DNA from: Takakia lepidozioides
Taxonomy: Eukaryota > Plantae > Bryophyta
DNA length: 64,000 nt
Reading direction: 5' to 3'
NCBI GenBank assembly: GCA_030704615.1
Contig: CM060731.1
Coordinates: 53,134,001 to 53,198,000, forward strand
Shown here: positions 8,093 to 47,220 of the stretch, one piece after another
Layout: each line of letters begins with the position of its first letter
Numbering within the stretch: the first letter of the stretch is position 1
The notes under the pieces: generated by a model
What the model was told of the DNA's origin: nothing
What the model saw: only the letters and a program-made list of their open reading frames with translations
The model's database searches: none
Position numbers and translations under genes: made by a program

Positions 8093-8945
8093 GTACTCAC
8101 AAGACGTTGTTTGTAGTAGCCTTGTGGCCATAGACCCTGCGCCCAGTTTGGGCGGAACAAAAGGGACCAGAAACTATCATTGTGAGGGGCTCACTCCGGT
8201 AGTCTGAGTTGCCTTGGTTTAAACAGTTAGTTCGAGATTTCCAGATATCCTCAAGAAAGCCTTCACACAAGCATCAATCTGCTGTGTGTGAGCAGACCAA
8301 AAGGTAGACCCCAACAGGACTTAAAGGCTCAGCCTCAACCTCAAGATTTGGAAGTTGGTGGACAGAGGTGCTGGGACATATTCTTGATCGTCCTGAAGAG
8401 GGTCGACTCTCTAATGGACATTGTCTTCAGGTTGCCCACACATCCTCCCTTCATCTGTTTCTTGTTCAAAGGTAGGCTTCCAGCCCTGAATATAAATTTC
8501 AGTCTAGTGCCAAGGGTAGGTAGGCCCTTGAGATCATCATCGCCCATGTCATAGACTGGAAACAAGTTCAGGGAAGTTTTACGCCTAACTTCATTTTCAT
8601 CGGATAGTCTTTGAGCATCAGACATGGCTTCGGACACAACCCCTCCAAGTCAGCTTCATCCAGTGGGTCAATTCTTCTGGACTGATATTCAAATACTTGA
8701 AAATCTCTTTTACCCTTCTCCGCCAAAACTTAGCCTGTTTAAGAGGATAGTCTTGCTTCCAAGAAATAGCGTCGATCATCTTAGGGTGTCTGGTATTAGG
8801 CATGAGATTCAACTGACCCCACCATCTGACATTGATATAAAGGCTTTCCAGATTTCATCTAGAATCTGCTGTGTGTGAGCTGTCCAGCAATTAGACCCCA
8901 ACAGGGCCAGGGCTTTAGGCTCAGCCGCGAGATTTTGAAAGACCA
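8093..8945 (-). mobile_element. 5'-truncated RTE-like LINE (3' end of ORF2 plus tail)
   Basis: Collinear with 57362-58170 (PTLGTRLKF.(F/L)RAGSLPLN; DAISWKQD) and carries the same 3' terminal motif GGCCACAAGGCTAC..CAAACAACGTCTT.TGAGTACA. Confidence 0.8.
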
Positions 8946-9363: not shown

Positions 9364-11902
9364 TCAAGCCCAGTGCTTTTGGCTTCTGTGGCGCTCCTTG
9401 TGGGGGGACCCTTCCTCATCACGGTGCCTTTTCTTATGTCTCTCCTTTCCATCTTTGTGACTGTGTCGATGTTCCTTTCTCCTTCGACGCCGTTCACTTT
9501 TCTCCTCCCTCCGCCTGTTCTTCTCTTCCTTCAGCTTTGCAATCACAGCCAATGCCTCTTCAACCGTTGTTACCTTATCAGGCAAATCTGCCCGTTCTTT
9601 TTCATTTGCAATTGATGTGACTGGCACTGGACCCCCTACACCAATGCCATGCTTCATCCATGCGGGTTGTACCATAGCTCGCCCTCTCCCCACGGACCCC
9701 GTAGCCAGCATTTGACTGGAAATGCCAGCCGGAAATCTTGCAGGTTGACTAGACAGTGGAGCCTCCTTTTGAAAGGGCCCTTTGTCTTTAGCGGTATTAG
9801 ACATTTTCTTGTCAAAATCTTCCTCCTCTGGCAGCAACTCGTAGGTCTTTTCACCAGTAGAATAGCATTCTTTTTTCAGATGGCCGTAGCCACCACATCG
9901 TGTGCATTGTACATTGTATACAGCCTCCAGCTTAAGCTGCCCCACATGTGACCCAATAACTCAACACAATGAGTGTCACCCTCCCCACAATGATGCTCAT
10001 TTCTCCAAGAATATTTCCAAAAAACTTTGGAGCTCAAAATCTAAACCTCATCACCTTTGTTTCCTCCCATTTCCCGTTCTGTCTTTCCCTCCCTCCCACG
10101 TCATAACCCTCATCCGCAGCACATTACCCTCTCCTTACCTCAAGAGCTGAGTGCAAGAAACCACAATGATCCTGCAGGCTTATGACAGTGCACAACTGCT
10201 TTCTGCCAAAATGGGAGTAGCAGAGGTTAATAGAATGGGAAGGAGATTTACCTTCTGAGGTTCCTGCCGTAGAGGCCGTGACTGTTGCTGTTCCAGCTGC
10301 ACATTGTTGGGGTCCAGATCTCGACCATCCCCCTGACTCACATACTTTAACGAGCATGCAACTTTGGTACTGCCATCCTCCTCCTGCTTCACTGAGATCA
10401 CTTTAACCCATACCTGATCCCCTTCTCCAGCTATTGAGGCAAGTGCCTGCACTTTGGCTTCGTCAGAATCATCTCTCTTAGTAACCTGCAACCAAGTGAG
10501 ATTTGGTATTTCAGGACTCATAAAGGCAGATATACCAAGGAGGAGCCAAACTAGGGGAAACAATCAATCTATATAAAACATGAGGTGAAAAAAAGACTCC
10601 TCAGAAAGTGAAAACAAACAAACTTCAAAGAAGTGTAGGATAACGACTGGAGGAGACAGATAGAATGACACACGGGGACAACCACATTTGCATGTGTTTC
10701 TGTCTGCCTACCTGCCTCCATTAGCAACAGGAGGCCTAAGACTAGCCACTCACAACTGCAGTTGTTGTGTGTATTGCAGCAAAACCCGCCACCATCATAC
10801 ACATGACCCTTGCCCAGGAATTCTCTCGAATTTCTGGGAATAACGCAGGCAACTTCAACTAACAACTCGGAACACAAAAGACGACTGAAAGAATAAAGGT
10901 ATAAACCTCGTGATCGCTGACTTGAGATATGTGAACAAGCCCATGGTTCCGGAAACCATCCAGGCGCACAAATATGCCGAAGTGCCGAACAGAATGCACT
11001 GTCGCCTTGTGTATGCTGTAGAGTGGTGGTGGAACAGGCGAATCTTGGCCTCCTCGTTCTCTAACCCTGTCCAATGGCCTCCTCCTGTCAATATCACCAT
11101 CTCTTGCCTTCCAGGTGTCGAGAGTTTCTTCGTCATCTTCATACCTAGCACGGTCTCGGCCAGTTTGACCTCGCAAATTGACATCTCTTTCAAATCTCTG
11201 AGATCCTCCATTTCTCTCTGTGTCCCCGCCTCTGTAGGGGCCGCGCATTGTATCCCCACCACCCCTCCTTTCCTGTCCTTTGTCGTCATTCTTAGACCTA
11301 ATGTGATCATGATCCCTTCGATTGTATGGGTCCACCACCCTTGGACCATCATCTCTGTCCCTATACCTGTCTCTCGGCTGCAGGCCGCCATCTCTGTGTC
11401 TTTCCGAATCCCTCTGAGGACCTCTTTCAAAACCCCTTCCCCTTGCAGGCACGACTCCATCCTTGTCTCTATCCCAGGCGACTCTACCATCTTTTTCTGT
11501 GTCCCTATCTCTTTCCCTGAACGTACTTTTATCGAGGTCAGGTTCTCTTGAGATCCGGGTACCAGTGATTCTGTCCCCGGTGATCCGGACATCTTGGGCA
11601 TTGGTTCTAAAATTATCAAACTTCTTCTCAAGAGGCCTATCCACACTCTTCTCAAGATCTACACCCAAACCAGCCTTCACTCCATTTCCATCATTTATCC
11701 CCACGTACTCATCAACGATCCGCGAGAACTTTTCTCTTGGGGGAGATGGGACAGTCGCTGAAGGGCTACGTGAAGAATCGGAGTCAGACTGAGCTCGAAC
11801 AATAGTAGACCGCAAAACTGGTGCACTACGGGTGCTGTACAGTCTGTCATCATTGCCAGGACTGTTAGTGTCACTGGGTGAAACCCTAGGAGACGTCGAC
11901 AT
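9364..11902 (-). CDS. S1 RNA-binding domain + CCHC zinc-knuckle protein (ZCCHC17/pNO40-like), about 600 aa
   Basis: Exons 11902-10907 (ATG MSTSPR; R/D-rich region; S1 start LYSIHKATVHSVRHFGIFVRLDGFRNHGLVHISQVS), 10485-10252 (GDQVWVKVISV..ACSLKYVSQGDGRDLDP) and 9936-9364 (CTRCGGYGHLKKEC; K/R/H-rich tail). GT-AG phase-0 introns. Confidence 0.88.
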
Positions 11903-13324: not shown

Positions 13325-15107
13325 ATGGCTGCTCAGCAGCCCACTTGGGGTTTTCACAGAAAAATCCAAGATACCCAGACTTCAGACATAAGCGCACAAA
13401 GGAGGCCCTTTGGTTTGACAGGTTGGTTGAACCCATCTTGGGTGAAAGCACCGTTAGCTGCAATGGTACAAGTTGGAGCACTGTCTGGTGATGGTTCTAA
13501 TGTACATTTGCAACGTGGAGCTCCAGGCCAAGAATACAATGGGTATATGACTGCAGTAGTTTTGTAACCCATCAATATGTACCAAAAACGCTGACCATGA
13601 GGGAGACTTTTGTTTAAAGTATGTGGGAACTTCAACATGTACTGTTTGTGTTTCAACTGGAAGTTTGTAACTAAAAGGTTTGAGTGACAGGTTGGCGGGA
13701 TCGAAAAAGGCACGATTGTATGATGGACAAAAAAACGATGGTGGGAGCAACACCTTCCCCTTCACTGAAAGAGGATCGAGAGAGGGAATGAACAAGAACG
13801 CTTCTGGCACTCGTGAGGATGTGCGGATGCTATGTAAGGCAGGACGACTAAACGATGTGCTGCATATGTTAAAGCAAGTAGACATTCAGGTAGACTATTA
13901 TACTTATATTTGTCTCTTGCGGGCATGCATCAACATGAAAGACCTAGCAAAGGGGAAGCAGGTGCACACCCACATTGTAGAAAGTGGATTCAAGCCAAAC
14001 ATCGTTCTACTGAACACCCTTGTCAACATGTACACCAAGTGCGGGAGCATGGTGGATGCACGGCTAGTGTTTGATAAAATGCCTGAACGGGATATGTTTA
14101 CTTGGACTATAATGATGGCAGGATATGCTAACCATGGGCATGCTAAGGAGGCTTTCCAGATCTATGAGAGAATGCAAGGGGAAGGGGTGACACCCGACAG
14201 GGTCACATTCATTTGTGTTCTCAATGCATGTGCCAACCTAGGATCTGTCGAAAAGGGCAAAGAGGTCCATGCTGACATTATCAAAGCTGGAATTGCATCA
14301 TACATTAATCTGGAGACAGCCCTTGTTGGCATGTATGCAAAATGTGGGAGTATTAAGGATGCACGCCAAGTGTTTGACAATATGGCTAGACAAGATGTGG
14401 TCTCATGGAGTGCAATGATCGCAGGTTATGCTCAACAACGGTGTAGTAAGGAGGCTTTGGACATCTACAAGCAAATGCAACAGGAAGGGGTGACACCCGA
14501 CAGGGTCACGTTCATTTCTGTTCTCAATGCATGTGCCAACCTAGGAGCCCTGGAAAAAGGCAAAGAGGTCCACGCAGACATTATTAAAGCTGGGATTGCA
14601 TCATATGTTAATTTGCAGAATAGCCTACTTGACATGTATTGCAAATGTGGGAGTATCATGGGTGCTCGTGAAGTGTTCAATAAAATGGCTAAACGAGATG
14701 TGATCTCATGGAGTGCGATGATTACTGGATGTGCCCAGCAAGGGCATGGTAGGGAGGCCCTGGAGTTATTTGAGAACATGCAACAGGAAGGCTTGAAGCC
14801 AAACAGTATCACCTTTCTATCTGTTCTCTCTGCATGTAGCCATGTAGGCCTAGTGGATGAAGGCTGCAAATACTTTGATTCCATGAGTCGAGATCATGGC
14901 CTCACACCTACAGTGCAGCATTTTGGCTGCATGATAGACCTTCTCGGGCGAGCAGGGCGATTGGATGAAGCAGAGGACGTCATTATGAAAATGCCCATGA
15001 AACCAGATGCTTCAGTGTGGGGTGCCTTGCTTGGTGCCTGCAGAATTCATGGCTACGTGCGTCTAGCAGAACGTGCTGCAAAAGGTATTCTGGAGTGTGA
15101 TTCATAG
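13325..15107 (+). CDS. PLS-class pentatricopeptide repeat protein (organellar RNA-editing-factor type), truncated in the E domain
   Basis: ORF 13680-15107 has P-L-S triplets (NTLVNMYTKCGS..ARLVFDKM..DMFTWTIMMAGY..) and ends with HFGCMIDLLGRAGRLDEA..SVWGALLGACRIHG. A putative first exon 13325-13542 joins in phase (GG|G) to the acceptor at 13691; this join is less certain than the PPR tract. Confidence 0.88.
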
Positions 15108-16223: not shown

Positions 16224-17067
16224 TGTGACACCAATCACTTCCGAGGTGGTATTCGCCCATTAACATTGTCAGCTACAACTTGGTTGTATTTAGGTGCAAA
16301 CTTAGGTGCATCACTTAGGGCCACCAATAAAAACAATGGAAGTATCCGATCGAACAGGTATCATCAATAAAATGTATAATTTTTTATCTCTCGATTGAAG
16401 GTAGAAAGGCTTGGGGGCTGATATACAATCCCAGCCTTGACATACATATTCACCAAGGTTGTCGCGCACCTCACTTCGGTAAGCTCCCTTTAAAGTCATA
16501 GTTACTCGCTTTGATGCGCGCGCCTAATTCCCTAACTGGCCGCCGGGCCAACTCGGAGCTTCGGCTGCTCACTGGGCCCCCTTTACTCCTCCACAAGACC
16601 CTATCCCAATTTGGGCCTGGTGGAAATTCCCTTTGGTCGATGGCAGTCCGGAATAGCTCCCCACACCTTGGTCGCTTTCCGGCTCGCACGCTTATTCACT
16701 AGTTTTTGGTCACCAACGGGCTTGCACCGTTCTCGGGGTTACTACTCCCTATATATACTTCTGTGACTGTCCGCGGGGGTTTCACAAACAACCATGCCAT
16801 TTTATGGCGAACCACCACGAAAACCCTCGATTCCCGGTCATGAGTCGCGGTGAGTCTTGGCCCACCCACCACGGTCCTATTGGACCGTGATGAGTCCCAA
16901 GACTCCCCACGACTCCCACCACAAGGTCTCCGTCCCCATGGTGAGTCCTATGTCACCCCCACTAAGTCCCACTAAGCTAACACCACCCCTCGTGGAACCA
17001 CCCCCACCGCAATTCGGTATGCGGGGCTCCACCTAGTGAGCGTCTCCGCCTCCTTGAGTGCCTTGGG
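16224..17067 (-). mobile_element. Probable distal part of the chromovirus 3' LTR, split off by the DNMT element
   Basis: Rejoins 27323 onward across the TGGG TSD to restore an 11-bp-arm palindrome. The candidate LTR end TGTGACACC at 16224 is a guess. Confidence 0.4.
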
Positions 17068-17257
17068 TGTCGTGCGCATACATATCGCTACACAACTACA
17101 TCGCTGTCCAAAACCACACAACACATGTGCACGCCGCACACTAGTATATCACTAGTCCACCACTAGTCCAGCCACTAGTCCTACCACTAGGCTACAACTA
17201 GTCAGTCACTAAGCTGCCACTATGCTGCCCACTATGGCAGTCACTAGTCCACACAAT
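17068..17257 (-). repeat. Terminal repeat B2 (190 bp)
   Basis: Direct repeat of 17587-17776, same length, about 8 substitutions by eye; rich in CACTAGT units. Confidence 0.95.
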
Positions 17258-17261
17258 AGAT

Positions 17262-17584
17262 AAAGAAGAAGAACACAAGCACAAGCTCATGCGAGCTCAC
17301 AAAACTGAAGCATAAACTCAAGCATATATAAACTCATCACTCAAATACAAGTCAAGCCAAGTGCACCCCACGCCATGGGGAATCCACACTACGGCGCCAT
17401 AGCTAGGCGCGGTGAGGCTCAACTTGAGAAAGATGAGCCTCCCGCGCTTGCCGTGAAGATAACCACTCCAGGGCCTAAATCTGCCTTGACCCCTGGATTG
17501 ACACTTGGGCCAATCCCAAATGTCAATATGTAAAAGCTAGCTATTTCCTAGCTAGTTTCACACTAGTGGTAAAATAACTTGACA
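17262..17584 (-). repeat. Terminal repeat A2 (about 323 bp)
   Basis: Near-identical direct repeat of 26999-27322; begins TGTCAAG on the minus strand; contains a TATATA box and hairpins. Confidence 0.95.
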
Positions 17585-17586
17585 GC

Positions 17587-17776
17587 TGTCGTGCGCATAC
17601 ATATCGCTACACAACTACATTGCTGTCCAAAACCACACAACACATGTGCACGCCACACACTAGTATATCACTAGTCCACCACTAGTCCAACCACTAGTCC
17701 AACCACTAGGCTACAACTAGTTAGTCATTAGGTTGCCACTATGCTGCCCACTATGGCAGTCACTAGTCCACACAAT
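17587..17776 (-). repeat. Internal repeat B1 (190 bp), preceded by a polypurine-tract-like TAGGGGGGCG (17786-17777)
   Basis: Direct repeat of 17068-17257; joined to A2 through GACA-GC-TGTC at 17581-17590. Confidence 0.93.
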
Positions 17777-18034
17777 CGCCCCCCTAGCTGGTGCTTAGGT
17801 CCCTCTAAGTCCAGGTAGCCACAAGATGTGATAGTGACCATAGCCTCACTAAGTCCTCCACCACTGTCCCTACTACACTCAAACTCGATAGATCAAGAGG
17901 CCGGGTGCAAGAGTTGCCCCATGGTTAGTCGCCGTCTTGCAACCTGTGAACTTGAGCCTGGGGTCTCCTGTATTGACTCCTATGAGCTTGGCCTCCCATG
18001 TCTTGTTAACTGCCTCTAGTCATGTCCACTGTCA

Positions 18035-19730
18035 CTATCCCAAGCAGTGTGGATATAACCAATCTCCATCAGGAACCCTCTCAAGAGGTGGTGTCAAGCA
18101 TCCCATATGCCAACCTCTTGAGCATCGATCACACACCAGCATGGTGGCTGCCCCTTTGGTAGACCCACAGAGCATGCACCTCAAACCTGCAGGTACCACT
18201 GTCAAGTTTGGGTCAACTCTGCCATCAACATTGGGAAGGTGGCATGGCGCACAATTACGCACATGGTCTTTCCAAGTCATGCCATCCCGACCCTCCAAGA
18301 TCAGGACTCCTGAGGGCAACACCTCTCGAACCCTCAGAATAACACGCCCTGCAGTAACATCCAGAGTCGTAGGAGCAGTCTGCTGCAAATAAACATAGTC
18401 ACCAGGGCTAAACCTCCGAACCCCAGGATGATATCCTCCACCACGTATAGTGGCATACCTCAACGTATCACGGTGTTGTGCAATGGCAAGGTTCTCAAAA
18501 CCCATGGGCATGACTTTCTTGAACAACTCTGCACGCTGATCACATGCACGTACTCACACGTCCGGATCGTCAAGGTTAAGGACTTGAGCAGTGTCCCTAC
18601 AAATGGCTGCAGGCAATATCCGGCTCTCGGCCAAAGAGAAGGAAATATGGTGAGAAGGAGGCAAATGATGCTTGTTTGTTGAACCTGTAGCCCATGGCTA
18701 ACCAAAGAACCTGAAGATCCCAATCTCATAGGTGTCCCTTCTGCAAGCCATACTTGCGCAAACCCCTCTTCACCGTCTGAACAACTCTATCTGCCAAGCC
18801 ATCGGCCTCAGGATGATCCCGAGAAGTGGTGCGGTGGTCTATCAAGGCTTTATCACACAAAGCCTGAAACTCCCCCAAGAACTCTCTCCCTTGGTCCGTG
18901 AGTACCTCAGCTGAGCACCAAATCGGCTAAGCCCACGATCCAAGAATGCATACGCAGCCCCTTCACTAGCCTTGTCAGGCAATGGAACCAACTCAATCCA
19001 CTTGGAGAAGTGCTCCACCATCACCAACACATATCTGTGGTGGCGCATAGTCAGTGACAACGGTCCTGCGAAGTCAAGACTCCACCTGTAGCCCAATCCC
19101 ATGATTGGTACAGGATGCAATTGTGGTGTAGGGGCGTTGAATGAAGCACGCACCCTGTCACACACCATGCACCTAGCCACGAACTGTTGCAACTCTGTAT
19201 GCATACCACGCCACCAATACTGCCCCTGCAGTAAACTGTGAGTGCGTCGCACTCCAAAATGCCCCAACTCCTCATGGGCATGCCGCACTAACCGTTGCTC
19301 GCTGTGTGGGGTGAGGCACAATCCTCACCCGACCATCCTCCCACACTTGAAGCAGGTGTATCCCCTCCCACTTGAACCTCTTGGCTCGTTGTAGGATCCG
19401 ATCCCTCTCCTTGGCAGTCACACTAGCTGCCGTGTCTCCAGTGCGGAGGTAGTCCAACACAACCAAATCCTCATGTATATCTCTGGCACCACCTGGCTCA
19501 TCACTAGCCTCAGGGTCCTCAGACACTCCGTCTGCAGTCATCCCTGCTGTAGGTCCAACCTGATCTCCTGATGCCAAGATACACAAAAAGGCAGATGCAT
19601 GTCATCCCGGCACCATCTCCTCGTCCGTCTCACCATGCCTTTGAGCTCCAATGTCATCCTACTGGCTCGTGCATGGATTGCGACTCAATCCATCCGCATC
19701 CCTATTGACCAAACCCGGTCGATACACAAC
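18035..19730 (-). pseudogene. RNase H tail, DDE integrase (HHCC + rve core) and C-terminal PHD finger
   Basis: VVYRPGLVNRDADGLSRNP; HEELGHFGVRRT..YWWRGM..CMVC; WSLDFAGP, VLTDQGREF, DHPEADGLAxRVVQTVKRGL; PHD CMLC..MLVCDRCSRGWHMGCLTPPLERVPDGDWLYPHC. Several frameshifts. Confidence 0.9.
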
Positions 19731-20219
19731 CTGAACATGTCTCTCATGCTCCTCCACCGTAGCACGAGAGACAAAGCAATTCCTGTAAGCCTCAGAAACC
19801 GCCGTATACGTCGTCTCTCTCCTCCAGTGAATGGGTCCAATATCAGGCTCCCAATTGTCCTCCGTAACTGCAACCTTCAGTCCAGTAGACTTAGAGGTAG
19901 AGGACGCGTCCCGTGGTTGATATGCCGCAACCTCATGAGCAGTACTCCGTGCCTGCTCAGTCAATGACAAAGCCTCATCCTGCCCCATCATCTCATCCTT
20001 GAGGACCTCCTCAACCCAAGAAAAATCCCCAACCTCATCCATCACAGCCGCCTTGGCTGCCAACTCCCTCTGAACCTCAAGCACCTCCCACATGTGCCAT
20101 GGATGTCTACACCCCGTGGTCTTCACCGGCTCGCCCCCACTCACTGCCTGTACCGTCTTGGTAGGCAGAGAGACCGTCAAGGGAAGTGCACTCTGCATTC
20201 TACGTTGCTCAGCCATAGC

Positions 20220-21170
20220 CAAGCTGATAATCCAGGTCAAGCAATTTAGATCCATTGCTCGCCCCAAAACCTGACGACGTGATGCCTCAGAAAGAGAAGG
20301 CACCGCTGTGGTCCCAGTTGAAAAACCCATAGCCCGCTCTCGCTCGTCGGCATTAGGCTCCACTAACTGCTGCAACTAAGCATCCCACAGGAGGCCAGGT
20401 CCGCTATCCCGGAAAGCATGCGATCCTTGGAAGCTGAGCAGTGTAGGTAGTGCTGCTCGTGGTCGACCCACCTTGTTGACCACTGCCAAAGACGAACGGT
20501 CATCGTGTCTCACACGCTGAGACTGCCTCCCTGTGTCCAAAATGCTATCCACTGTGAGGTGTGCTGGCCGCTGCACCCCATCAAATGCACGCTTAAGCAG
20601 TGCAGGTGACATCAAGTTAGTCCACCATAACCGTGGACGATGAGCCCTTGACCCCACTGCAGCTGCATCCAGCAACACTGCTGACCCAAGCCATGACCGG
20701 ACTTGATGCACACTGGCCATCACCCTGGCCCGAGAATTGCCCATCAGTGGCACATTCTCCAAGATGTATGCTGGAGATACAGCTTGATGAAGCTGTAAGT
20801 GGCGCAAAACCCGCACCATCTCCCAAAACAGACCCGACCTCAAGTCTCGCAATCCATTGCCATGCCCGGCTGATGAATGCCCTTGGCAGGGCCAACCTGC
20901 CACTACCAAATCAATGGAGCCAACCCGCTCCAAATCCTGCGCCCCTAGCAACGAAATGTCTACTGGCAAGGCCTGCTGATATCCACGAACTGCAGACACC
21001 GGCAACAACTCAGGGTACCGCTGCACCAACTGAGCAACATGGCAAAGTGAAACGCGTCGTGCAGTCTCATCCCTCTCCACATACAAGTAACGCCGAACTC
21101 GTACACCTGCCTGTAACACAGCAGCCAATCCGGTGCTGATCCCGCCAAACAAGTCCAGAAGACAAATGCC
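20220..21170 (-). pseudogene. DNMT3-like C5 cytosine methyltransferase domain embedded in pol
   Basis: Motifs in canonical order: I LLDLFGGISTG, II YLYVERD, IV IDLVVAGWPCQGHS, V RSGLFWEMVRVL, VI YILENV, VIII RAHRPRLWWTN, IX ADERERAMGF, X RRQVLGRAMD. One in-frame TAG at 20376-20378. Confidence 0.92.
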
Positions 21171-21539
21171 TTCATCCGGATACTGCCGCACAATAGGTGT
21201 GGTATCCAATAGAAACAACTGAGGTGGTCTTGGTGTAATCCCCATACTCTCTTCCTCTCCTGACGGTACAAAAGCCTCCACCCAGGCTTGTTGCACCCAT
21301 CGATCAGCATCTCGCTGCAAATCTTTGCTCGTGCCCCACAATGGAGTCTGAGCAACCATGGTAGGCAACTCCGCCATACCATATATGTCATCCTGCTCTC
21401 CCGGAGGTGTCACATCCTCTGAATGAGCGTTGCCCTCAAGCAACTCTCCAGACCAATTCACTGCCGCTGTGAATGCTGCTAGTGTCGGCATCTTGCCTCG
21501 CTGGGCAACCGCAACTCCTCCTATGAACGTCACATGGAG

Positions 21540-21980
21540 CTACACATGCCGGCCCTCCCCTGACTGCCATCCAGGCCTATAGGAAGCTGACTCCTCCCAA
21601 AAATCCAGGGTGAAGCCCATGAGGTACAATACTGCCCTACCAACCAGGACATCGTACGAGACCGCGTCTGTCACAATGGTCTTGGCTCGCATCATTGAGC
21701 CATTTGTAGGGTGATCCGGCCGTAGTCTGATAGCCCACTCGTGCCCTGTCATGCCCCGAGCCTGCTCCGATCCTCCCAGAGACGTCTGTATCTGGAAATG
21801 ACAAGGCTCCATATCCGCCTCCGTGAGGCCCAAGCCTGCAATAGCAGCTCTGCCCAGCATCAATGGTTGAGCTCCCGAGTCCAACAAGACCCGCAGTGGC
21901 CGGTACCTCTTGCCTGCCGGTCCACTCAAACAGAAAATGTCATCCTGGTTGTCTACCATGACAACTCCAGGTGTCACCAT
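21540..21980 (-). pseudogene. Retroviral-type aspartic protease
   Basis: VLLDSGAQPLMLG catalytic motif and YDVLVG flap-end motif; in frame with the DNMT across one TAG. Confidence 0.85.
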
Positions 21981-22020
21981 GGCGCGCTCAATGGCTGGCC
22001 TAGCTGGCAGCTGCAGCTTG

Positions 22021-23955
22021 CTATGGCACCGCCGTGGTAGTCTTGACCCTCAAATCTGAGGATCCCTCCGGCACTACACCAGCCACTATCTCCGCAGAAG
22101 ATGAAATAACCTCCCCACTCTCACAGAGTGTAGCTGCCAGCCTGAACACCTCAGCTGGTCTTACCCTCGGCGTCGCAATCATGGTAGCCGAGAACAATGG
22201 AGCCTGACACACAGATGTGGCCGCTCCTAGCAGCACACTAGCTGCCGTAGCCTTGGCAACACTAGGTAGTGATGTTATCCGTGTAGCTCTCCCCAATGAC
22301 GTAGTAACCTCCGCCTTGGTAACAGTCGGGCGAGAACTAGGTGCCATGGATGGCGTCGATACTGTCTCCGCCAATGTAAATGACTGAGGAAGCCTAGCCT
22401 GACGGCTTGCCTCCCCATGCTGTGGATCCAACTCCACCTCTGCACCTCGTGGCTCAAGAACTCGTGCTGCTCCTCGAGTCACGGCTGCAGCAGACTCCGG
22501 CTGCAGCAGACTCCAGCTGCACTAGTGGTAGTGCTGCTCCGCACATGAATCCCATGCCTCCCATATCTCCTCCCTCAGGAGCAGGAGGTGGACCATCCAG
22601 CCTCGGAGCCGGTACCACCTGAGCTGTAGCCATGGCAGCGAGCCTCTGCTCTAGCTGCTGAAGCCGGTTGGCCATGCCTTGGTCAACACCCTGACCTCCG
22701 CGTCCTTGGCCATGTTGAGCTTGCCCTTGGCATACACCCCGTGCCTGGCCACCTCATCCTCTTTGGGCTGCTCCCCCTCGCCCCCGGCCACCATTGTTCC
22801 CTTGGAACTGGCCTGGGCGCAACTCGAGATGCAAACCATAACACTGGGCCTCTCCATGCCCGTGCTTGCCACAATGCCCACACTGCAACTGTGCAGGCTG
22901 TGCATGTGCCGGCCCTTTGCCTCCCTCTAGACAATCCTTCTCGACATGGGGTCCTCCACATGTCCAACACACCACATCCGCCCGTTGTTGGCCTGCAAAT
23001 GAAGGGAGAGACCCCTACATCTGAGGTCCTCTTTGCCCTTCCCTGAGCTTCACCTGAGCCCCCTTATTGCCTTGAGCACGTTGAGGTAGTGGTTGGCTAG
23101 GAGCACCACTACCCCGTGGTGTCTCCTTAGTAAATCCCACCATGATCACTCGTTCCTCCACCATATTGAGCTCTATTCGCTCTGCTAGCAAAAACACATT
23201 TGCTAAGGTGGGTTGGGCCGCTTGTAGGAGAGTTGCATCCCGCACCCTTCTTCTCAGCTCCTTGTCCAATATCCCATACCAGAATTGGACTGCCTGAGCT
23301 TCCGTAACCCCTTGGGTTACATTTATCAAGCGCCTCATGCGAGTGAAAGCCTCCCTCAAGCTCTCAGTAGGCTTCCGTTGGAACTCTTGCAAGCTCCGCA
23401 ACTTCTCTGTCCTCACCCCTTGGTAGTTCCCTCTCAACTTTTCGAAGAACTCCACAACAGGGTTGAAGGCAGGCACGGATATTGGTGCTAGTGTGGTAGT
23501 GGCTTGGGTGGACGTCGTAGCTATGGTACCACCAATCCTACTAGTCCCACTGCTGCTTGCTGAAGCTGCCGGTGCAGCGGCAGGTGTAGCCACTGCCCTC
23601 GTGACTCTAGTGCCCCTAGTGATGGAGACATAGTCGGGTGACCAGTACATCCTCCACTCCTCGATCTCAACCTCATGCCCCCGCCTGAACTCATGGTAAT
23701 CATCCATAGGCGGCCCCTCAAGGTGTTGAAACAGCCCCTTCCATGCCATGAAAGACGTAAATAGTTGTGGATTGCGCATTTGCTGCAAATCACACCAGCT
23801 ATCAAACTCTTGGATAAAATCATCCAACTCGATGGTGCCCACCGCCCCAGAGTACCTTCATGGCCCCTTGGTAGCTCCATACATCTCCTCCATTGTGTCC
23901 CACAACAATGGCAAGGAAACAACTTGCACCGCCGGTATGAGTCATCCTGATTCAC
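22021..23955 (-). pseudogene. gag with two zinc knuckles
   Basis: ELDDFIQEFDSWC..LFQHLEGPPMDDY..LQEFQRKPTESLREAFTRM (retrotrans_gag-like); CWTCGGPHVEKDC and CGHCGKHGHGEAQC; in-frame TAG at 23015 and frameshifts. Confidence 0.82.
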
Positions 23956-24769
23956 AATCCTTCCGTAGAAGATACAAGAGGTGAAGGTGGCCTAAACCGC
24001 ACACCTCGTCTCGTGTATCCACTAGTATCGTTAGTGCTCGAACCAGCACTATCCCCAGCAACTAGTGGCACCTCCGTGTTGACACTCAACCGGTCATAAA
24101 CATGTCCTAACCCCCTCTCCAAAAGGTAACCGGGTAGAGAACCTGTTGCGGCTTATGGTTTGGAATACTAAGTTCCTAACATAGCCTACAACATGTACCT
24201 GCATCCATCGCAAGCACTCCTATGGTTGGCTGGTCATCACCTCCAACCTCACCACAGGAGAAACAATGATGGTCTGGCTGGTCATCACCCTAGCCTCACC
24301 ATCGACAACATGCTCTAGGACTGGCCGGTGATCAAATCCGGACCAATCACCTATAAAAACAAGCGCCCATACAAAACTAGCATGGCACACAGTCAAGCAT
24401 GCAGGTATGGAGGGGATCCAAACACAAGAAATCAGAACAACAACTCCCCCACACCAAAAACAACTCCACGGTGTTGCTCCTGCAAGGACACCCCAGCCCA
24501 AACCTGGACTGACTCTTGCCTCCACCTACGGAAAGGGTCTTGGCCTAATGAGAGGGTGGAAACTACGAGGAAGAGAAGCTAAAGCAATGCCTAACCCCAA
24601 CATGCCCTCATCCCAACACTCTTCATCTCCTCTCTTCCCTCACTTGCATGACCATGGGAATATCATGAAGATACTCCTCCACGAGCTTCAAAATTCGGCC
24701 TTCAAGACCACATGCCAGTCCTTAGGCAGTCCACCAGTGCCTCCACGAGTCAGCATAGGCCGTCCATAG

Positions 24770-25450
24770 GTCAACACAGGCCACCACAGACCAGCACAGG
24801 CCCACACAGCTCACTGGTCACAGCCGTCACAGCCCCACACATGCCACAGCCCTACACATATCACAGGGTCACAGCCCCACAGGCCGCAGCCTGTCACAGC
24901 CCATCACAACCCCAAAGGCCACAGGCACAGCCTGTCACAGCCCTACAAAAGTCACAGGGTCACAGCCCCAAAGGCCACAGCCTGTCACAGCCCCTCATAG
25001 CCCATCACAGCCCCACAGGCCACAGGGCACAGCCTGTCACAGCCCGCCACAACCTGTCACAGCCCCTCACAGCCCGTCACAGCCCCACAGGCCACTGGGC
25101 ACAGCCCGTCACAGCCCCACAGGCCACAGGCCACAGGCCACAGCCTGTCACAGCCCACCACGGCCTGTCACAGTCCCTCACAGCCCGTCACAGCCCCACA
25201 GGCCATAGGGCACAGCCTGTCACAGCCCGCCACAGCCCGTCACAGCCCTACACAGTTCAGAGGGGTCACAGCCCCAAAGGCCACAACCTTTCATAGCCCG
25301 TCACAGCCTGTCACAACCCTACACAGGTCACAGGGGTCACAGCCACAGCCTGTCACACGTCAGAGGGGTCACAGGGCACAGGGCACAGCCTGTCACAACC
25401 CGTCACAGCCCCAAAGGCCACAGGCCACAGGCTGTCACAGCCCCCCACAG
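24770..25450. repeat. Degenerate minisatellite (GTCACAGCC / CCACAGG units) in the element's 5' leader
   Basis: Dozens of CACAGCC-type units visible directly. Confidence 0.9.
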
Positions 25451-25959
25451 CCCATCCATGGCCACTCATGGCAGTTTAGCCATTTCTCCAAGGGGTTTAG
25501 CCACGCCACGCTAGGGTTTGTGTCTCTTGGACTCTAGGCTTCTTTGCACCGAGCTATGGCGGCTGTGAAGAAAACAGCAAGGTATTCTTGCTCTTTCGGC
25601 TCCCACACATCACCAATAGTAGCCCTAAGCCATGAGGAAGATGGTTGCCACAAACCAAGCCTTCTTTCTCACTTAGACTCCCCAAACATGCCACTAAACT
25701 CAATGGCAAACAACCAAGCCTTGCTGGTTTCCAGCCCTTGTGAGCACTCATTCAAGCGTTTCCCTTGGCCATAGCATCTATTTTAGAGCCTATTCCAGCC
25801 CCCTACACCTGCCATTTCAAGAGCCATGCTCTATCTAGGCTTGAGGTTGAAACCCCAACTCAGAACACGCTCTACAAGTGTCGGACTGTCACATAAGAGC
25901 AGATCAGCCCATTACCTTCTCTTCTAGTTCTCTAAAGCTTGAGAACAAAAGCCCAATGG

Positions 25960-26310
25960 ACTGAAGGCATGCTCCACACATGCCCCACTCTCACCACAAG
26001 AGAATCAGCCCCTTTGCTTCATTTCTTGCACCCACCAACCTGAAAATACAAGCTTCAGCGGGCTGGAAGCATGCTCCACACATGCCCAACATGGAAACCA
26101 GCCCCTTCCTTCCTTTCTTGCACTCCTAAACTTGAAAGTACAAGCCTTCAACAAGCCGAAAGCATGCTCCACACATGCATTGCCCTCACATAAGGGAAGT
26201 CAGCCCTTCCCTCTTCCTTGCTTGCCCTCCAAGCTTGAAGATGGAAGCTTCAATGAGCTGAATACATGCTCCACACATGCAACCTCTTCACACAAGAGGT
26301 ATCAGCCCCC
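25960..26310. repeat. About 4 x 100-bp tandem units with a CATGCTCCACACATGC core in the element's leader
   Basis: Core recurs near 25968, 26070, 26163 and 26266. Confidence 0.8.
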
Positions 26311-26998
26311 TATCTTGGCTCCTTGGCTCCTTGATGGCTCTCTAAGACAAGACTAAGCACTCCACAACCTTTGCCAAGCTCTTGAAACCCTAAGGCTTAC
26401 ATTTCCAGCCATAAGACACTCCTCTTGTGGTGCAAGAGCTCTTCTTCCAAGCTCTGAAACCCTAGGTGCACATTCCATGGCCTTGTCGCACCTCTTAGCT
26501 CCTGTTCCAGCCCTGCTCTTGCCATGACAAGAGCCCTCTCAATGCTGAAGCTCGAGATTGAAACCCACTCTCAACATACTCCAAAAAGCACTGATTTGCC
26601 CCAAGCCAAATCAGCCCTTTCGCTTGGTCTTGCAATCCTTCACACAATGAAAGCTCGCATTCCCAAGTCCAGTTCTCAGCTTTGCCACCAAAGCCACTAT
26701 AACCTGCTCTTGACTGGTCCTCTTCCCAATCATGCTTGCTCATGCATGTACACAATCTGAAACCATCAAGGTGCTCTGGAATTACCTGCAGCATGGTGCT
26801 TTCATCTCTGAAGCCGAAGATCGAATGCCAAAGTCTACCACCTCGCAACCCACATCGCCTCCGCTTCTAACAACCAAGAGCTCCACGGTGCTCCTTGCAT
26901 AACAACCTGGTTTTTCTCATTCTCAAGCAAAAACCATAAGTGCTACAACTAACTCGTATCTGGCACTCACAGATACAAGCTGATCTTTCTCGAGTGAA

Positions 26999-27322
26999 AA
27001 AGAAAAAGAATACAAGCACAAGCTCATGCGAGCTCACAAAGCTGAAGCATAAACTCATGCATATATAAACTCATCACTCAAATACAAGTCAAGCCAAGTG
27101 CACCCCACGCCATGGGGAATCCACACTACGGCGCCATAGCTAGGCGCGGTGAGGCTCAACTCGAGAAAGATGAGCCTCCCGCGCTGGCCACGAAGATAAC
27201 CACTCCAGGGCCTAAATCTGCCTTGACCCCTGGATTGACACTTGGGCCAATCCCAAATGTCAATATGTAAAAGCTAGTTATTTCCTAGCTAGTTTCACAC
27301 TAGTGGTAAAAAAAACTTGACA
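26999..27322 (-). repeat. Terminal repeat A1 (5' end of the DNMT element)
   Basis: Direct repeat of 17262-17584. Not followed by B or by a recognisable TGG-type tRNA primer-binding site. Confidence 0.95.
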
Positions 27323-30092
27323 TGGGCACTCAAGGGTGCTTCAGCCCCCGCATCTAGTGTCGCCACTGCCCCCACCACAGGGGCAGCCCCTCTCGTGTCC
27401 CGACCCCCTGCCCTCAAGGCAAAGGGCCGCGACACACACCCCTACCAACAGGTAGTCGATGTCCTCATCGACTTGTCTATTTTGTAGAAACGAACATCCA
27501 AGTTGTGGCGTCCCACATCAAGGAATTTGTTTCCACACCATGGCGTCCCATGGCTAAGAACCAAACCCCCACTTGACTCTACTCTCCACTAGCTAGTTCG
27601 GCCGACTTCCTCCAAGTCCCGGCCAAGGGTGGGGCCTCTCAAGCTCCTCCCAGTGCACTCTTCTTGACCCACTTCAGGGCCAAGGAACGATCCTCCCCGA
27701 GGATCGAATCGCCTTACTGCAACAACGTTTGTTTGCGACCGCTCGTGATGTCGCTTCTTGGCATCACCTTGAGCAAGGGTTTGCCTTGAACCCTATTTTA
27801 CTAGGAAGATAACCTTGAACCAACCATGCGCCCCAATCACTACAATTGGGTCCGCCTTGGAATGTTGGCCTGAGGTACGGGAACACGCCGAAGCCGCACT
27901 ACGACTTCGTCCCGAGGCTTCACGATTATAGTACGTGAACGGAAGTACGTAGCTTCCGCGTTAGTCTGCATTACAAGACAACCCCCTCGGTAGCGCAGTT
28001 ATAGTACGCGCACGCGCCAGGTGTGTACTAGCACGTGAACTCCCAACGAAGGTGCAAGTTTCCTTGCCCCTTGGGTGGGAGTCACCCGATTTCGGCACTA
28101 CACAAACACACGATTAATCCAATTTACCTCTCTCACTTTGTAAGCTTAGCATGCATTCTACACACTAGCCAACCATACCATGCATCACCATTCCAAACAA
28201 AATAAGACGCACAACATTTGGAAACCATTTCATTTATAACAAAATTTGTACAATACAAGTTTTTGCAATCGGATTCCTGAGCTAGCTAAGCCGGGCTAAG
28301 CATGCATTTCCTCCCCCACGCTCCAAGGTTGATGTCCCCATCAACGCTTCTTCCGCTTTTGAGGTCGCCCTTCGAAAGTTGCAACCGCCTCGGATGCGTT
28401 TCCCATTTCTGAGGCACGCACCCAAGATGCCTCCACATGATATAGCCCTTCCATGTCACGAGATACTCCGTTTCTCGATTCTTGAACCTCCTCGACTTAA
28501 GCACTGCTTCCACCTCGTACTCAGGTTCATTTTCATGATCCAACAGCATAGGTGGCGGACGCAACACCTGAGGCCGATTCGGACGCGCTTTATCTTTGAA
28601 GTAAGGCTTCAAAAAGGAGACGTGGAATACCGGATGCACCTTGCTGTTTGCCGGCAGCTCCAGTTCATACACATCCTCATTCATAACCTTCCGGATGCGA
28701 AAAGGTCCCGCATACGGAGGTACGAACTTCGGACTCACTTCCGGAGGTAGTCGAAAATTCTTGATGTTCAACCAGACCTCCGTGCCTGCCTCAAACTTAA
28801 CCTCCTTCCGCTTCTGATTCACTTGCCGTTCATACCGTTTCCTAGCTTTGGCAATGATGTACTTTGCGAGCTTCAACAAACGCTCGCGTTCTTGTAGCAC
28901 TGCCGTTGCTGCCGATTCCTCAACGTCTTGGGTGGCCCAACTTGTCGGCATCAGAGGTGTTTTTCCATAAACCAATACGAAGGGGGAAACTCCCGTTGCG
29001 GAATGTTTTGTGTTATTATAACAGAACTCTGTCGCATCCAAGTGCTCCACCCAGTCCGATTGGTCTGCCGACACATAATTCCGCAAGATCTGCTTCACCA
29101 CGGAATTCACCCTTTCTGTTTGGCCGTCCGTCGTAGGTCGGAAGGCGGTGCTCATTTTGAGCCTCGTCCCCATTTTCTTCCAAAGTGCCCTCCAAAACTT
29201 ACTTGTAAACTTTGGATCGCGGTCCGAGACAATATCCTTCGGGAGTCCATGATGCTTGAAGACGTGGGCGAAGTAAAGTCGCCCCGCCTCCTGCGCCGTT
29301 GCCATCTCCTTGGTGGGGATGAAATGGCCCATTTTACTGAACCTATCCACCACCACCATGATTGCATCGAATCCTTTTGACAGCGGCATAGCAGTCATGA
29401 AATCCATCGAGACACTTTCCCAAGACCCCTCTGGAATCGGCAAGGGTTGTAACAGCCCCGCTTACTTTTTGTACTCGCTCCGGTTTTGTTGGCATGTGGT
29501 GCATGTCTTGACATACTCCTCGGCCTCCTCCCTCAGTTTGGGCCAGAAATACTCTTTCTTCAAGAGTGCCGCGGTGCGCTTGGCTCCGCCGTGGTCCGCA
29601 AGCGGGCCATCATGGCATTCTCTCAAGAGACTATCTCTGATCCCTCCCTTTGGCACGTAGAGACATTTTTGCTTGTACCGGAGTAGTCCATTTTGCAAGT
29701 GGAACTGCAATTTAACCCCCATCCTCAAGTCCCGCATCACGGACTTCGTCATCTCATCCTTCCGGTAAGCCTTCCGGATCTTCCTCTGGAGCGCCGTCTC
29801 GCCCTTGTACACTAGCATGAGCTGCTGCTTTCTACTTAAAGCATCGGCCACCACATTGTCCCGTCCCGGTTTGTACTGGATATCCACGTCGAACACCGCC
29901 AAAGTGTCTTGCCACCTAAGTTGTTTTGGGGACAACTTAGGTTGCGTGGCAAAATATTTCACCGTGACATTGTCCGTGAACACCTTCACCGGGTTGGAAC
30001 CAACATAGTGGCACCAAAGCTCAAGGCAATGCACCACCGCTTTCATCTCTTTCTCATGCGTTGGCCACCGTCGCTCCACTTCATTTAGTTTT
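27323..30092 (-). mobile_element. 5'-truncated chromovirus Ty3/Gypsy: RNase H, integrase, chromodomain, PPT and start of 3' LTR
   Basis: ERRWPTHEKEMKAVVHCL (RH); ECHDGPLADHGG..CTTCQ; SVSMDFMT, IVSDRDPKFTSKFW, TDGQTERVN; YAGPF; chromodomain EYEVEAVLKSRR..EYLVTWKGY; PPT GGGGGAGGAAA just before TG at about 28306. Confidence 0.92.
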
Positions 30093-30764: not shown

Positions 30765-31125
30765 GGGCTTTGTAGGGTGGATTCCTTTAGCAAAGGTGCC
30801 CTTGGCTTGACTTAGTTTATGTGATTGAGTGGATTCATGAGTGGAGTGTTTCCATTGTGTTCACTTTCATTATCACTACAAGAAGATGACCTTATGTTTG
30901 TGAGTGCGGAGTGTAAGGATTAGCTTAGCACTTGTGTTGGTGTACACCAAGGAGTAAGAGAGCTAGGAAAAGCTCAAGTATCTCAGGGTGTTTCAAGGTG
31001 TTGCAAGAAAATGTGCTTGGTGAAGTTGCATGCACCAAGGAATTGGAGAGCTAGTAGAATTTAGCTCTTGTTTCGCAAGGCTTGCAAGGCTTGCAAGGAA
31101 AGGTACTTGTGGTGTTACACCAATA
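30765..31125 (+). mobile_element. Fragment of an A-repeat/leader of the DNMT-element family
   Basis: Near-identical to 45074 onward (GGGCTTTGTAGGGTGGATTCC..GGTGCCCTTGGCTTGACTTAG) and similar to repeat A (GTAGTGTGGATTCCCC..GGGTGCACTTGGCTTGACTTG). Confidence 0.65.
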
Positions 31126-46720: not shown

Positions 46721-47220
46721 NNNNNNNNNNNNNNNNNNNNNNNNNNNNNNNNNNNNNNNNNNNNNNNNNNNNNNNNNNNNNNNNNNNNNNNNNNNNNNNN
46801 NNNNNNNNNNNNNNNNNNNNNNNNNNNNNNNNNNNNNNNNNNNNNNNNNNNNNNNNNNNNNNNNNNNNNNNNNNNNNNNNNNNNNNNNNNNNNNNNNNNN
46901 NNNNNNNNNNNNNNNNNNNNNNNNNNNNNNNNNNNNNNNNNNNNNNNNNNNNNNNNNNNNNNNNNNNNNNNNNNNNNNNNNNNNNNNNNNNNNNNNNNNN
47001 NNNNNNNNNNNNNNNNNNNNNNNNNNNNNNNNNNNNNNNNNNNNNNNNNNNNNNNNNNNNNNNNNNNNNNNNNNNNNNNNNNNNNNNNNNNNNNNNNNNN
47101 NNNNNNNNNNNNNNNNNNNNNNNNNNNNNNNNNNNNNNNNNNNNNNNNNNNNNNNNNNNNNNNNNNNNNNNNNNNNNNNNNNNNNNNNNNNNNNNNNNNN
47201 NNNNNNNNNNNNNNNNNNNN
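46721..47220. other. Assembly gap (500 N)
   Basis: Run of n. Confidence 1.

Follow-up and report, generated by a model that had tools for sequence, protein, structure and literature searches.

A dead Ty3/gypsy retrotransposon copy from a seed-free land plant carries a DNMT3-like methyltransferase and split direct repeats

In the 64-kb stretch of DNA that we analysed (the window), we found a 10.3-kb Ty3/gypsy retrotransposon (copy 1) whose host is a seed-free land plant. Copy 1 is a dead, RT-deleted member of an old green-plant Ty3/gypsy lineage in which Gag, protease and a DNMT3-like cytosine methyltransferase (DNMT) form the first frame. Its identity as a Gypsy-DNMT3 retrotransposon is practically certain. 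We give a probability of roughly 0.6 to the whole proposal, which is that copy 1 is dead, that the RT-RNase H-integrase-PHD part of the family would be made by amber readthrough, that the element would insert from a circle and that the DNMT would methylate this circle. The kind is already known, as retrotransposon DNMT3s have been described in Klebsormidium and in dinoflagellates (de Mendoza 2018, PMC5890265). In the literature searched, we did not find the conserved stop, the self-priming or the permuted LTR of such elements. Evidence on further copies was drawn from host sequencing runs and metagenome loci; the same insertion has been assembled repeatedly among many of the 79 loci, so locus counts overstate independence. 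The body of copy 1 has the following features, with the spans of protease, Gag and integrase derived from alignments.

17068–27322, minus strand: whole element copy 1, Ty3/gypsy, with split direct repeats and TG...CA ends
27323–27326, no strand: 4-bp target-site duplication flanking the element on its 5' side, identical to bases 17064–17067
17064–17067, no strand: 4-bp target-site duplication flanking the element on its 3' side; loose ends past 17067 run into sequence from 27327 on
24775–26308, minus strand: extended 5' untranslated region, in which two arrays of tandem repeats lie
22622–23893, minus strand: gag, encoding two zinc knuckles and interrupted by stops (Retrotrans_gag E=7e-4; 63% to Marchantia P0003 Gag)
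21549–21974, minus strand: aspartic protease (Asp_protease_2 E=0.008, which falls under the curated cut-off; 55% to the protease of P0008)
20223–21170, minus strand: DNMT3-like C5-methyltransferase domain, motifs I–X in canonical order, premature stop at 20378–20376
19920–19922, minus strand: position at which the family carries its conserved ORF1-terminating stop; copy 1 has a sense codon here, followed by a CAR-YYA context
19736–19765, minus strand: RT remnant of 10 codons between two deletions
19677–19735, minus strand: C-terminal tail of RNase H
18621–19309, minus strand: DDE integrase (H2C2 finger and core), frameshifted (Integrase_H2C2 E=9.8e-16, rve 3e-5)
18044–18187, minus strand: PHD finger at the integrase C-terminus (PF00628 E=2.1e-9)

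The empty-site joint (17063 to 27323) is present in 25 contigs of host run X1, and 120,445 contigs of the same run align to the element, showing that the family is abundant in the host. Target duplications of 4 bp, exact at 7/9 loci and with a single mismatch at 2/9, indicate a DDE integrase. The nearest solved structures to the PHD finger are those of CHD4, KDM5A/B PHD1, ATXR5 and PHF21A. Rfam gave no matches across the 64-kb window. The initial description of copy 1 omitted the split repeats, the self-priming site and the C-terminal PHD finger. The window also holds a second copy, which breaks off immediately ahead of RT.

52368–56319, plus strand: copy 2, a diverged and truncated subfamily member with 5' UTR, partial gag and RT lead-in
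53996–54427, plus strand: copy 2 protease
54781–55725, plus strand: copy 2 DNMT, with a stop inside at 55441
56107–56109, plus strand: copy 2 amber stop in CAA-TCA context

The C5-methyltransferase motif set that the original prediction had read in copy 1 is real: when we ran the PF00145 check on the translated region, the profile matched the ORF at 20376–21536 with E=1.6e-12 and copy 2 with 1e-12, and all 12 of the 12 scored motif residues are kept in copy 1. We located the codons of motif I Phe/Gly at 21149/21143, motif IV Pro-Cys at 20891/20888, motif VI Glu-Asn at 20759/20756, motif VIII Arg-x-Arg at 20639/20633 and motif X Gly at 20264. The proposed resemblance to DNMT3 also holds up, since DNMT3A (E 6e-9) and DNMT3B are its nearest solved relatives in sequence, followed by DRM (5e-5) and M.HhaI (2e-3). 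A DNMT model of a natural stop-free relative, P0038 (pLDDT 92), had DNMT3A/B as its best Foldseek matches (E 1e-18; TM 0.83 by target length). DRM identity is ruled out because the permuted motif order is absent. The catalytic Cys is retained in 31/31 type A and 63/63 type B rows that have a residue at the site. Purifying selection acts on the DNMT: dN/dS is 0.09 between copies 1 and 2, has a median of about 0.10 against 34 loci (the protease is similar) and is 0.12 for L048/L049, values limited in the deep comparisons by synonymous sites near saturation. In close pairs dN/dS is 0.6–0.7, as expected of decay after insertion.

The original prediction had placed the DNMT between protease and RT. 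The first half of this placement stands, as the protease (21974–21549) precedes the DNMT in the same frame; the second half does not apply to copy 1, in which RT is deleted. None of 26 ORFs scanned gave an RVT match, and nothing in copy 1 matches the RT portion of P0008. Loose ends at 19765 continue to a YIDD motif in 22 X1 and 2 X5 contigs, and loose ends at 19735 (X1, X5, X6, X8) continue into RNase H sequence. A reading of the 36-nt stretch at the RT gap as filler from a hairpin was rejected, because the RT remnant lies within it, flanked by two deletions. Other host copies in the sequencing runs do carry RT, and RT was found downstream of the DNMT in 42/51 loci. The description of the DNMT as an ordinary, in-frame part of pol has to be given up: the protease-DNMT frame of copy 1 has stops at 21542–21540 and 20378–20376, there are frameshifts near 19790–19830, and in the family a stop precedes RT.

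This stop lies at one shared site, in frame, in 42/43 loci (29 amber and 13 ochre; the remaining locus has a deletion), while any other codon is a stop in at most 31% of loci. The site is amber in nearly all other copies of the host runs; base 19920 differs in about 99% of X1 depth and in all depth in X5, X6, X7 and X12. CAR directly follows the stop in 42/42 loci; the complete CAR-YYA is found at only 5/42 stops and 36/42 have CAA-CCC. In L048, a 1369-codon ORF is followed by a single stop and then by a 1047-codon ORF with the frame unchanged. Single-sequence folds predict an RNA stem 3' of the stop (z –0.3 to –4.8; 4/12 below –2), and RNAalifold consensus folding found no common register for it. 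From the position of this stop, the DNMT is the last domain of ORF1 (Gag-PR-DNMT), and RT-RNase H-integrase-PHD would probably be made by readthrough. In the algal relatives P0022, P0128, P0171 and P0019, the DNMT runs into RT without a stop, so Gag-level DNMT is not universal. We did not accept proteins of the P0008/P0014 type as proof of a continuous DNMT-RT frame, because P0008, P0009, P0013 and P0023 omit the linker.

The ends of copy 1 are built from two repeats, each present twice.

27159–27170, minus strand: predicted self-primer (RNA 5' end), complementary at 12/12 positions to the site after A1
26996–27322, minus strand: repeat A1, 327 nt, 96% to A2 (11 mismatches, 1 gap)
26984–26995, minus strand: primer-binding site (PBS), adjoining A1, without the initial TGG expected for a tRNA site
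17777–17792, minus strand: polypurine tract (PPT), immediately before B1, conserved among related loci
17587–17776, minus strand: repeat B1, 190 nt, 96% to B2
17581–17590, no strand: palindromic B1-A2 junction GACA-GC-TGTC, element ends joined over a 2-bp spacer (17585–17586)
17259–17584, minus strand: repeat A2
17068–17257, minus strand: repeat B2; at the A2|B2 joint, the end set by the PBS meets the start set by the PPT

The self-primer pairs at 12/12 positions in the window and at 10/12 or more in 20/26 loci, as compared to 5/1040 control 12-mers, and 5/12 pairs have changed on both sides between the window and moss-type copies. The A...B-A-B layout of the window is complete in L040, L041, L042 and L053, and its 3' part is present in L057 and L061. 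The same or nearly the same B1-A2 junction is found in these six loci and in L048 and L052, where the palindrome and the PPT are retained despite 49% DNMT identity. Repeat A1 would correspond to the end of U3 plus R-U5 of a permuted LTR, and B1 to the start of U3; the TG...CA ends with their 4-bp duplication meet at the internal palindrome. The split repeats thus appear to resolve into a permuted LTR, which points to insertion by a DDE integrase from a circle, and we consider it probable that the integrase cuts the internal junction. A retroviral (foamy-virus) integrase can cut a palindromic LTR-LTR junction (PMC1180852). Eight loci end in A...B without A2-B2, as compared to six with B1-A2. 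We rejected these A...B-only copies as proof of integration of a one-LTR circle: L029 (A...B) and L057 (B-A-B) have the same right flank, which makes recombination between B1 and B2, or a collapsed assembly, a sufficient explanation.

We found relatives in Marchantia, Calypogeia, Sphagnum, Closterium, Klebsormidium and Mesostigma, and a sister layout in chlorophytes, in which a DNMT that may belong to the same clade is located between RNase H and integrase. The DNMT trees are quick trees with SH-aLRT support, built from rows of these green-lineage elements. In the quick tree, K. nitens GAQ93235.1 falls on the same side as the present family in the split from chlorophyte-type rows (96 SH-aLRT). 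In this protein a protease precedes the DNMT, the domain has 36% identity to the Marchantia reference domain, and the sequence, in an entry labelled partial, stops 19 residues past motif X. A search of viral contigs with P0026 for the ends of chlorophyte-type elements gave no match, and neither DNMT nor methyltransferase occurs in the liverwort genome paper PMC12885004.

Among known systems, KnitGypsy-Dnmt3 of K. nitens, as described in the available part of PMC5890265, resembles the present element in its Gypsy domains (Gag, PR, RT, RH, INT; RT here from other host copies), in a non-permuted, intronless Dnmt3-related domain with key residues and Ka/Ks below 0.2, and in DIRS-like split direct repeats of the form A...B-A-B. 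It differs in having DNMT and RT in one ORF, where we find a conserved stop between them (42/43 loci), and the present host is a land plant; self-priming, PPT, target duplication and PHD finger are not given in that part of the paper. In yeast, KnitGypsy-Dnmt3 gave no methylation, a result its authors deem inconclusive, whereas de novo CG methylation was demonstrated for SymbioDIRS-Dnmt3, which also combines a Dnmt3-type domain with A...B-A-B repeats (PMC5890265). Self-priming is described for Tf1/Sushi and plant Tcn1 Ty3/gypsy elements (PMC7175516, PMC6317226), where the RNA 5' end likewise complements the site that follows the 5' repeat (over 11 nt in Tf1, over at least 12 predicted here); as described there, those elements have paired LTRs and a chromodomain, in contrast to the permuted repeats, PHD finger and DNMT found here. 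Type I readthrough, as in tobamovirus and MuLV gag-pol, uses UAG-CAA-UYA with a CAR-YYA stimulator (PMC3159437), and shares with our element an in-frame amber and CAR between structural and replicative parts; here the stop follows protease and DNMT, not gag, and its context is mostly CAA-CCC, one base off CAR-YYA. The foamy-virus system (PMC1180852) likewise has a DDE enzyme and a palindromic two-end junction with a short spacer. Here, in contrast to foamy virus and IS911, the junction is encoded within the element's U3 and not formed from cDNA ends. IS3 and IS911 transpose by way of a circle junction.

DIRS elements have a tyrosine recombinase, and the split repeats might have a DIRS/PAT-type origin, with B2 templated from RNA and the B1-A2 junction serving as circularisation template; or the integrase might cut the junction on linear DNA, with host repair forming the A2|B2 joint after strand transfer. 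The layout is indeed the DIRS split-repeat layout (PMC5890265). Both routes would fit the high uniformity of the A2|B2 joint across loci and the missing mirror layout A-B-A...B (0/23 5' ends), which a symmetric two-LTR circle should also yield. In contrast to DIRS and SymbioDIRS, the present element has a protease, a DDE integrase and 4-bp duplications, a profile search found no tyrosine recombinase in its ORFs, and its self-priming site and PPT coincide with the end of A and the start of B, the positions that standard LTR replication requires. We consider these routes improbable and prefer integration through the internal junction. In Ogre elements a stop is removed by splicing. Splicing out of the stop, or reinitiation at a nearby ATG, could express RT-RNase H-integrase from the same element, and the annotated Marchantia and Sphagnum proteins P0008, P0009, P0013 and P0023 do fuse the DNMT to RT with the linker skipped. 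The four gene models drop different stretches, however, which looks like a prediction artefact, and there is one stop and not a stop-rich intron. An ATG lies two codons 3' of the stop in most moss-type copies, but it is missing from the window copies and from L048/L049/L052, which yet keep stop and CAR, and the frame is the same on both sides in 31/42 loci, with subfamily gaps 3' of the stop of 18 and 3 nt. We regard splicing or reinitiation as quite unlikely, and readthrough as the better account.

The two copies in the window and the majority of loci are no longer intact, and only 6/39 full-length DNMT copies are stop-free, as might be expected if a host DNMT3 had been captured recently and incidentally and were now drifting. 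This is largely refuted and very improbable: the family is high-copy, where the original prediction had allowed for two copies with neutral dN/dS, dN/dS is instead about 0.1, and the PR-DNMT order is shared by Klebsormidium, Mesostigma, Closterium, liverworts and Sphagnum, with separate clades for Marchantia and Sphagnum copies. Host plant DNMT3s (PpDNMT3a/b) share the non-permuted DNMT3-type catalytic domain but have a C-terminal DUF3444 (PMC6453930), which is missing from the window ORFs and from all of the close relatives scanned (0/66). The domain is retrotransposon-borne and not a host gene, and it is of the kind reported by de Mendoza 2018, as had been proposed; as far as the two refuting conditions of that proposal could be applied, both failed. 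We think it unlikely that the DNMT serves another purpose than to mark cDNA, such as silencing the inserted copy, methylating host targets in trans or binding nucleic acid in the particle without catalysis, though Gag-level expression would exceed the enzyme need of one cDNA, an RT-less form, probably multi-copy, retains the DNMT region, and host benefit is among the options in de Mendoza 2018 (PMC5890265). Against it, the enzyme is inside the polyprotein in every layout observed, and the near-invariance of the catalytic residues in both layouts argues against a non-catalytic role.

Returning to the preferred reading, we propose that the RNA would start within A1 and prime itself in the manner of Tf1, and that ordinary LTR reverse transcription would yield linear DNA with LTRs of the form B-spacer-A. 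The linear ends would be joined, giving the A2|B2 joint, and integrase would open the palindrome within U3, so that the inserted copy would be a permutation of a two-LTR circle. Because it precedes the stop, the DNMT would be produced and enter particles in amounts matching Gag, far outnumbering RT and integrase, and would methylate the new DNA in the particle or the nucleus, so that the copy would arrive pre-marked. The protease might release the DNMT, as the original prediction had suggested. That cDNA is the substrate is an assignment that we favour slightly. A broader and more tentative suggestion, which we hold at less than even odds, is that these elements form a green-lineage Ty3/gypsy clade predating land plants, with self-priming, a normal LTR and integration through the U3 palindrome of circular or end-joined DNA, in which a Gag-level DNMT3 methylates DNA before insertion, the PHD finger targets chromatin with unmethylated H3K4, and the DNMT has moved once within the polyprotein. 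If true, U3-palindrome integration would be a replication route undescribed for LTR retrotransposons.

The end anatomy suggests how a gypsy element could come to have DIRS-like repeats, through DDE integration at a junction within the element, and paired-LTR finders would probably miss or misread such permuted ends. The conserved stop makes a prediction about dosage, in which the methyltransferase would be a Gag-level component of the particle. A number of bryophyte genes annotated as "DNMT" are in fact ORFs of transposons. The presence of the lineage in Marchantia and other bryophytes places a DNMT3 retrotransposon within a genetic model, and this high-copy family may bring non-host de novo methylation into bryophyte genomes.

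We found that the window carries two copies of a Ty3/gypsy retrotransposon with a cytosine methyltransferase (DNMT) domain; copy 1, the element proper, lies at 17068-27322 on the minus strand.

21170-20223, minus strand: C5-methyltransferase domain of copy 1 (PF00145, E=1.6e-12)
52368-56319, plus strand: copy 2, a diverged second DNMT-carrying copy

The complete C5-methyltransferase motif set read by eye in the original prediction is present in copy 1, with 12/12 scored residues in canonical order. Its proposed likeness to DNMT3 also held: in a sequence search the closest solved structures are DNMT3A and DNMT3B, followed by DRM and M.HhaI, and a structure model (pLDDT 92) of P0038, a natural relative at 70% identity, has its best structural matches in DNMT3A/B (E 1e-18, TM 0.83 by target length). 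The DNMT of each copy is interrupted by a stop codon, so both copies are dead.

The DNMT had been placed ahead of the reverse transcriptase (RT), but copy 1 has no RT: there was no RT domain match among the 26 window ORFs scanned, and the RT part of the Marchantia protein P0008 has no match anywhere in the element. A 2173-nt contig from the public sequencing run X12 aligns to 19373-19735 and to 19772-20294, and 1284 nt of additional sequence separate the two segments. Contig loose ends at 19765 continue into a YIDD motif (22 contigs in run X1, 2 in X5) and those at 19735 continue into RNase H (X1, X5 and X8, the last being a second organism); thus, the RT of copy 1 was lost by two deletions that left a 10-codon remnant. 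The RT-less form is probably present in multiple copies, because X7 contigs span the deleted joints and position 19771 is listed for 29 X1 contigs. RT is also missing from L069, L071, L010, P0087 and P0012, where the DNMT is kept with integrase or a PHD finger. Derivatives without RT thus occur repeatedly, across several hosts. The family is highly abundant: 120,445 X1 contigs align to the element.

Protein searches returned 36 longer relatives and 65 of similar length, with named sources in Marchantia polymorpha, Calypogeia fissa, Riccia, three Sphagnum species and Closterium; 79 related metagenome loci were found, and a full HMMER scan gave 186 clusters at E<=1e-30. Among the best 150 of these 186 clusters, the DNMT lies behind Gag/protease in 14 (type A, with Klebsormidium nitens GAQ93235.1, Mesostigma and Closterium among those named) and behind RT/RNase H in 58 (type B, with Scenedesmus and Hariotina as the named members); in 16 it precedes integrase or PHD without a visible RT, and 62 show the DNMT only. 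In quick trees with SH-aLRT support, whose rows were relatives of the element, types A and B separate (99 and 96) and the two window DNMTs are sisters (96); this pair shares a 26-row clade (100) with Calypogeia and with one clade each from Marchantia and Sphagnum. DUF3444, described as a companion domain in host plant DNMT3 (PMC6453930), is absent from 66/66 scanned relatives. Of the 62 DNMT-only proteins, 54 were among those scanned and the remaining 8 are fragments of 116-258 aa. In the chlorophyte sister layout RT-RNase H-DNMT-integrase-PHD (P0124, P0260, P0029, P0302 and about 60 more proteins; named sources Scenedesmus and Hariotina), many proteins are long ORFs without stops. The catalytic Cys, Glu-Asn and both Arg are invariant in 63/63 DNMTs of this layout, and the residue before the catalytic Cys is often Glu instead of Pro. 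The integrase C-terminus carries a PHD finger closest to those of CHD4, KDM5 PHD1, ATXR5 and PHF21A, which are readers of unmodified H3 tails.

Neutral dN/dS was not observed in the DNMT. Between copies 1 and 2, the difference amounts to 69% at synonymous and 15.5% at non-synonymous sites (dN/dS 0.09; protease 0.10); the median against 34 loci is approximately 0.10, and L048 versus L049 gives 0.12. Close pairs reach 0.6-0.7, as expected because copies decay after insertion, and only 6/39 full-length DNMT copies (one alignment segment covering 90%) are free of stops.

The predicted reading of the DNMT as in frame within pol was not sustained. Of the 51 loci with enough sequence downstream, 42 have an RT behind the DNMT, and 31 of these keep both in one frame. 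A single codon position between the two anchors is a stop in 42 of the 43 loci having both (29 amber, 13 ochre); every other codon of Gag, protease, DNMT, RT and RNase H is a stop in at most 31% of loci. L048 has 1369 codons, a single stop and 1047 codons more in the same frame, and the stop-to-RT distance in L052 equals that in L048. Calypogeia and several Marchantia proteins have their C-terminus 86-92 residues past motif X, and in four annotated DNMT-RT fusion proteins the stretch of linker left out differs from one protein to the next. ORF1 terminates after the DNMT at this conserved stop, whose window counterparts are:

56107-56109, plus strand: amber stop of copy 2, at the site of the conserved stop
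19922-19920, minus strand: stop site of copy 1, a sense codon in the window

At 19922-19920, the variant giving amber makes up ~99% of X1 depth and all depth in X5, X6, X7 and X12.

We infer that the stop is read through. CAR follows it directly in 42/42 loci (CAA-CCC in 36, full CAR-YYA in 5), and the Type I readthrough signal is given as UAG-CAA-UYA (PMC3159437). Against readthrough, the majority of moss-type copies are one base off this motif, most have an ATG close to the stop, and four algal-branch proteins lack the stop. A 3' stem behind the stop appears in single-sequence folds, and consensus folding (RNAalifold) finds no common register. If the ORF1 stop is leaky, as its context suggests, the DNMT would be produced at the level of Gag.

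From 27322 to 17068, the element reads A1, internal region, B1, 2 bp, A2, B2, where A and B are split direct repeats; it starts with TG, ends with CA and has a 4-bp duplication on both flanks, and the empty site is present in 25 X1 contigs. The full layout recurs in L040, L041, L042 and L053 (L040 and L053 being one and the same insertion) and its 3' part in L057 and L061; 4-bp target duplications are exact in 7/9 loci and have one mismatch in 2/9. A1 and A2 differ at 11/326 bases and B1 and B2 at 8/190, so the insertion of copy 1 is not recent. In copy 1, the 12 bases past A1 are complementary at 12/12 to A positions 153-164. Such self-complementarity (at least 10/12) occurs in 20/26 loci versus 5/1040 control 12-mers; the paired A segment lies mostly ~31 nt behind a TATA-like box, and 5/12 pairs are changed on both sides between window and moss-type copies. 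Self-priming in Tf1 is described with this arrangement (PMC7175516), a likeness at the sequence level. Because the self-priming site follows A1 and the polypurine tract adjoins B1, not A2, the ends read as a permuted LTR, and the reverse-transcribed LTR would be B-spacer-A. The A2|B2 joint would then be the right LTR end fused to the left.

The integration ends lie inside the LTR, at the palindrome GACA-GC-TGTC, which together with the polypurine tract is preserved in L048 and L052 despite 49% DNMT identity. The inserted form could arise from a two-LTR circle opened at this internal palindrome; the circle junctions of the IS3 family offer a parallel. Foamy-virus integrase is reported to cleave palindromic LTR-LTR junctions (PMC1180852), a parallel for the proposed cut. 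A simple symmetric circle as the substrate is disfavored, as the mirror layout appears in 0/23 5' ends and 8 loci terminate in B alone; speculatively, the asymmetry of the layout from a circle opened at the palindrome could arise if the 5' LTR duplex is completed earlier. At L023:13195-13483 and L026:5531-5819, a partial A and primer-binding site are fused to B without a polypurine tract, flanked in L023 by a 4-bp duplication; this rearranged copy may have arisen by autointegration or by recombination.

The element sits within another high-copy repeat, where its flanks (17050-17067 and 27323-27337) form a short inverted repeat with the insertion in the loop. The empty form of the site is common in X1, and the surrounding repeat may correspond to the 3' part of the adjacent chromovirus. 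That separate chromovirus-type gypsy fragment (28286-30091, minus; RNase H, integrase, SH3, chromodomain) has a CpG observed/expected of 0.91, versus 0.50 in the DNMT element. Two genes lie nearby:

9532-11542, minus strand: S1 RNA-binding and zinc-knuckle host gene, at least 3 exons
13671-15107, plus strand: PPR gene, single ORF with an internal duplication of 303 nt

The best named matches of the former are in Sphagnum, Marchantia, Diphasiastrum, Calypogeia and Ceratodon, which puts the host among land plants without seeds, likely the bryophytes; the latter is probably of the RNA-editing type. Further dispersed repeat pairs (30765-30935 with 45074-45300; 8088-8835, 37340-37424 and 57354-58170) probably represent termini or pieces of other elements. 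The ORFs at 44009-44593 and 50196-51233 (both plus) have no Pfam match and by eye resemble DNA-transposon fragments. An assembly gap of 500 N lies at 46721-47220 within an AT-rich repeat region, and several ORFs listed there are artefacts.

KnitGypsy-Dnmt3 is described as having gypsy domains, repeats of DIRS-like layout and a Ka/Ks under 0.2, as in the window family, and showed no activity in its authors' yeast test (De Mendoza et al., 2018, PMC5890265). Passages of PMC12344493 and bioRxiv 10.64898/2026.05.21.726589 mention such elements only as 'streptophyte'. Within the non-subscription literature, with most matches judged by listing, we found no publication on a land-plant family, the conserved stop or the permuted LTR. 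Odd ends may have been described in the REM1 paper for a gypsy element of Chlamydomonas.

Taken together, these data indicate that the DNMT element is real and that its presence extends the 2018 finding to land plants. More surprising are the probably leaky stop that would set the enzyme at the level of Gag and the end anatomy, which suggests that the integrase acts at an internal junction. Both were deduced from sequence and could be put to the test in Marchantia.
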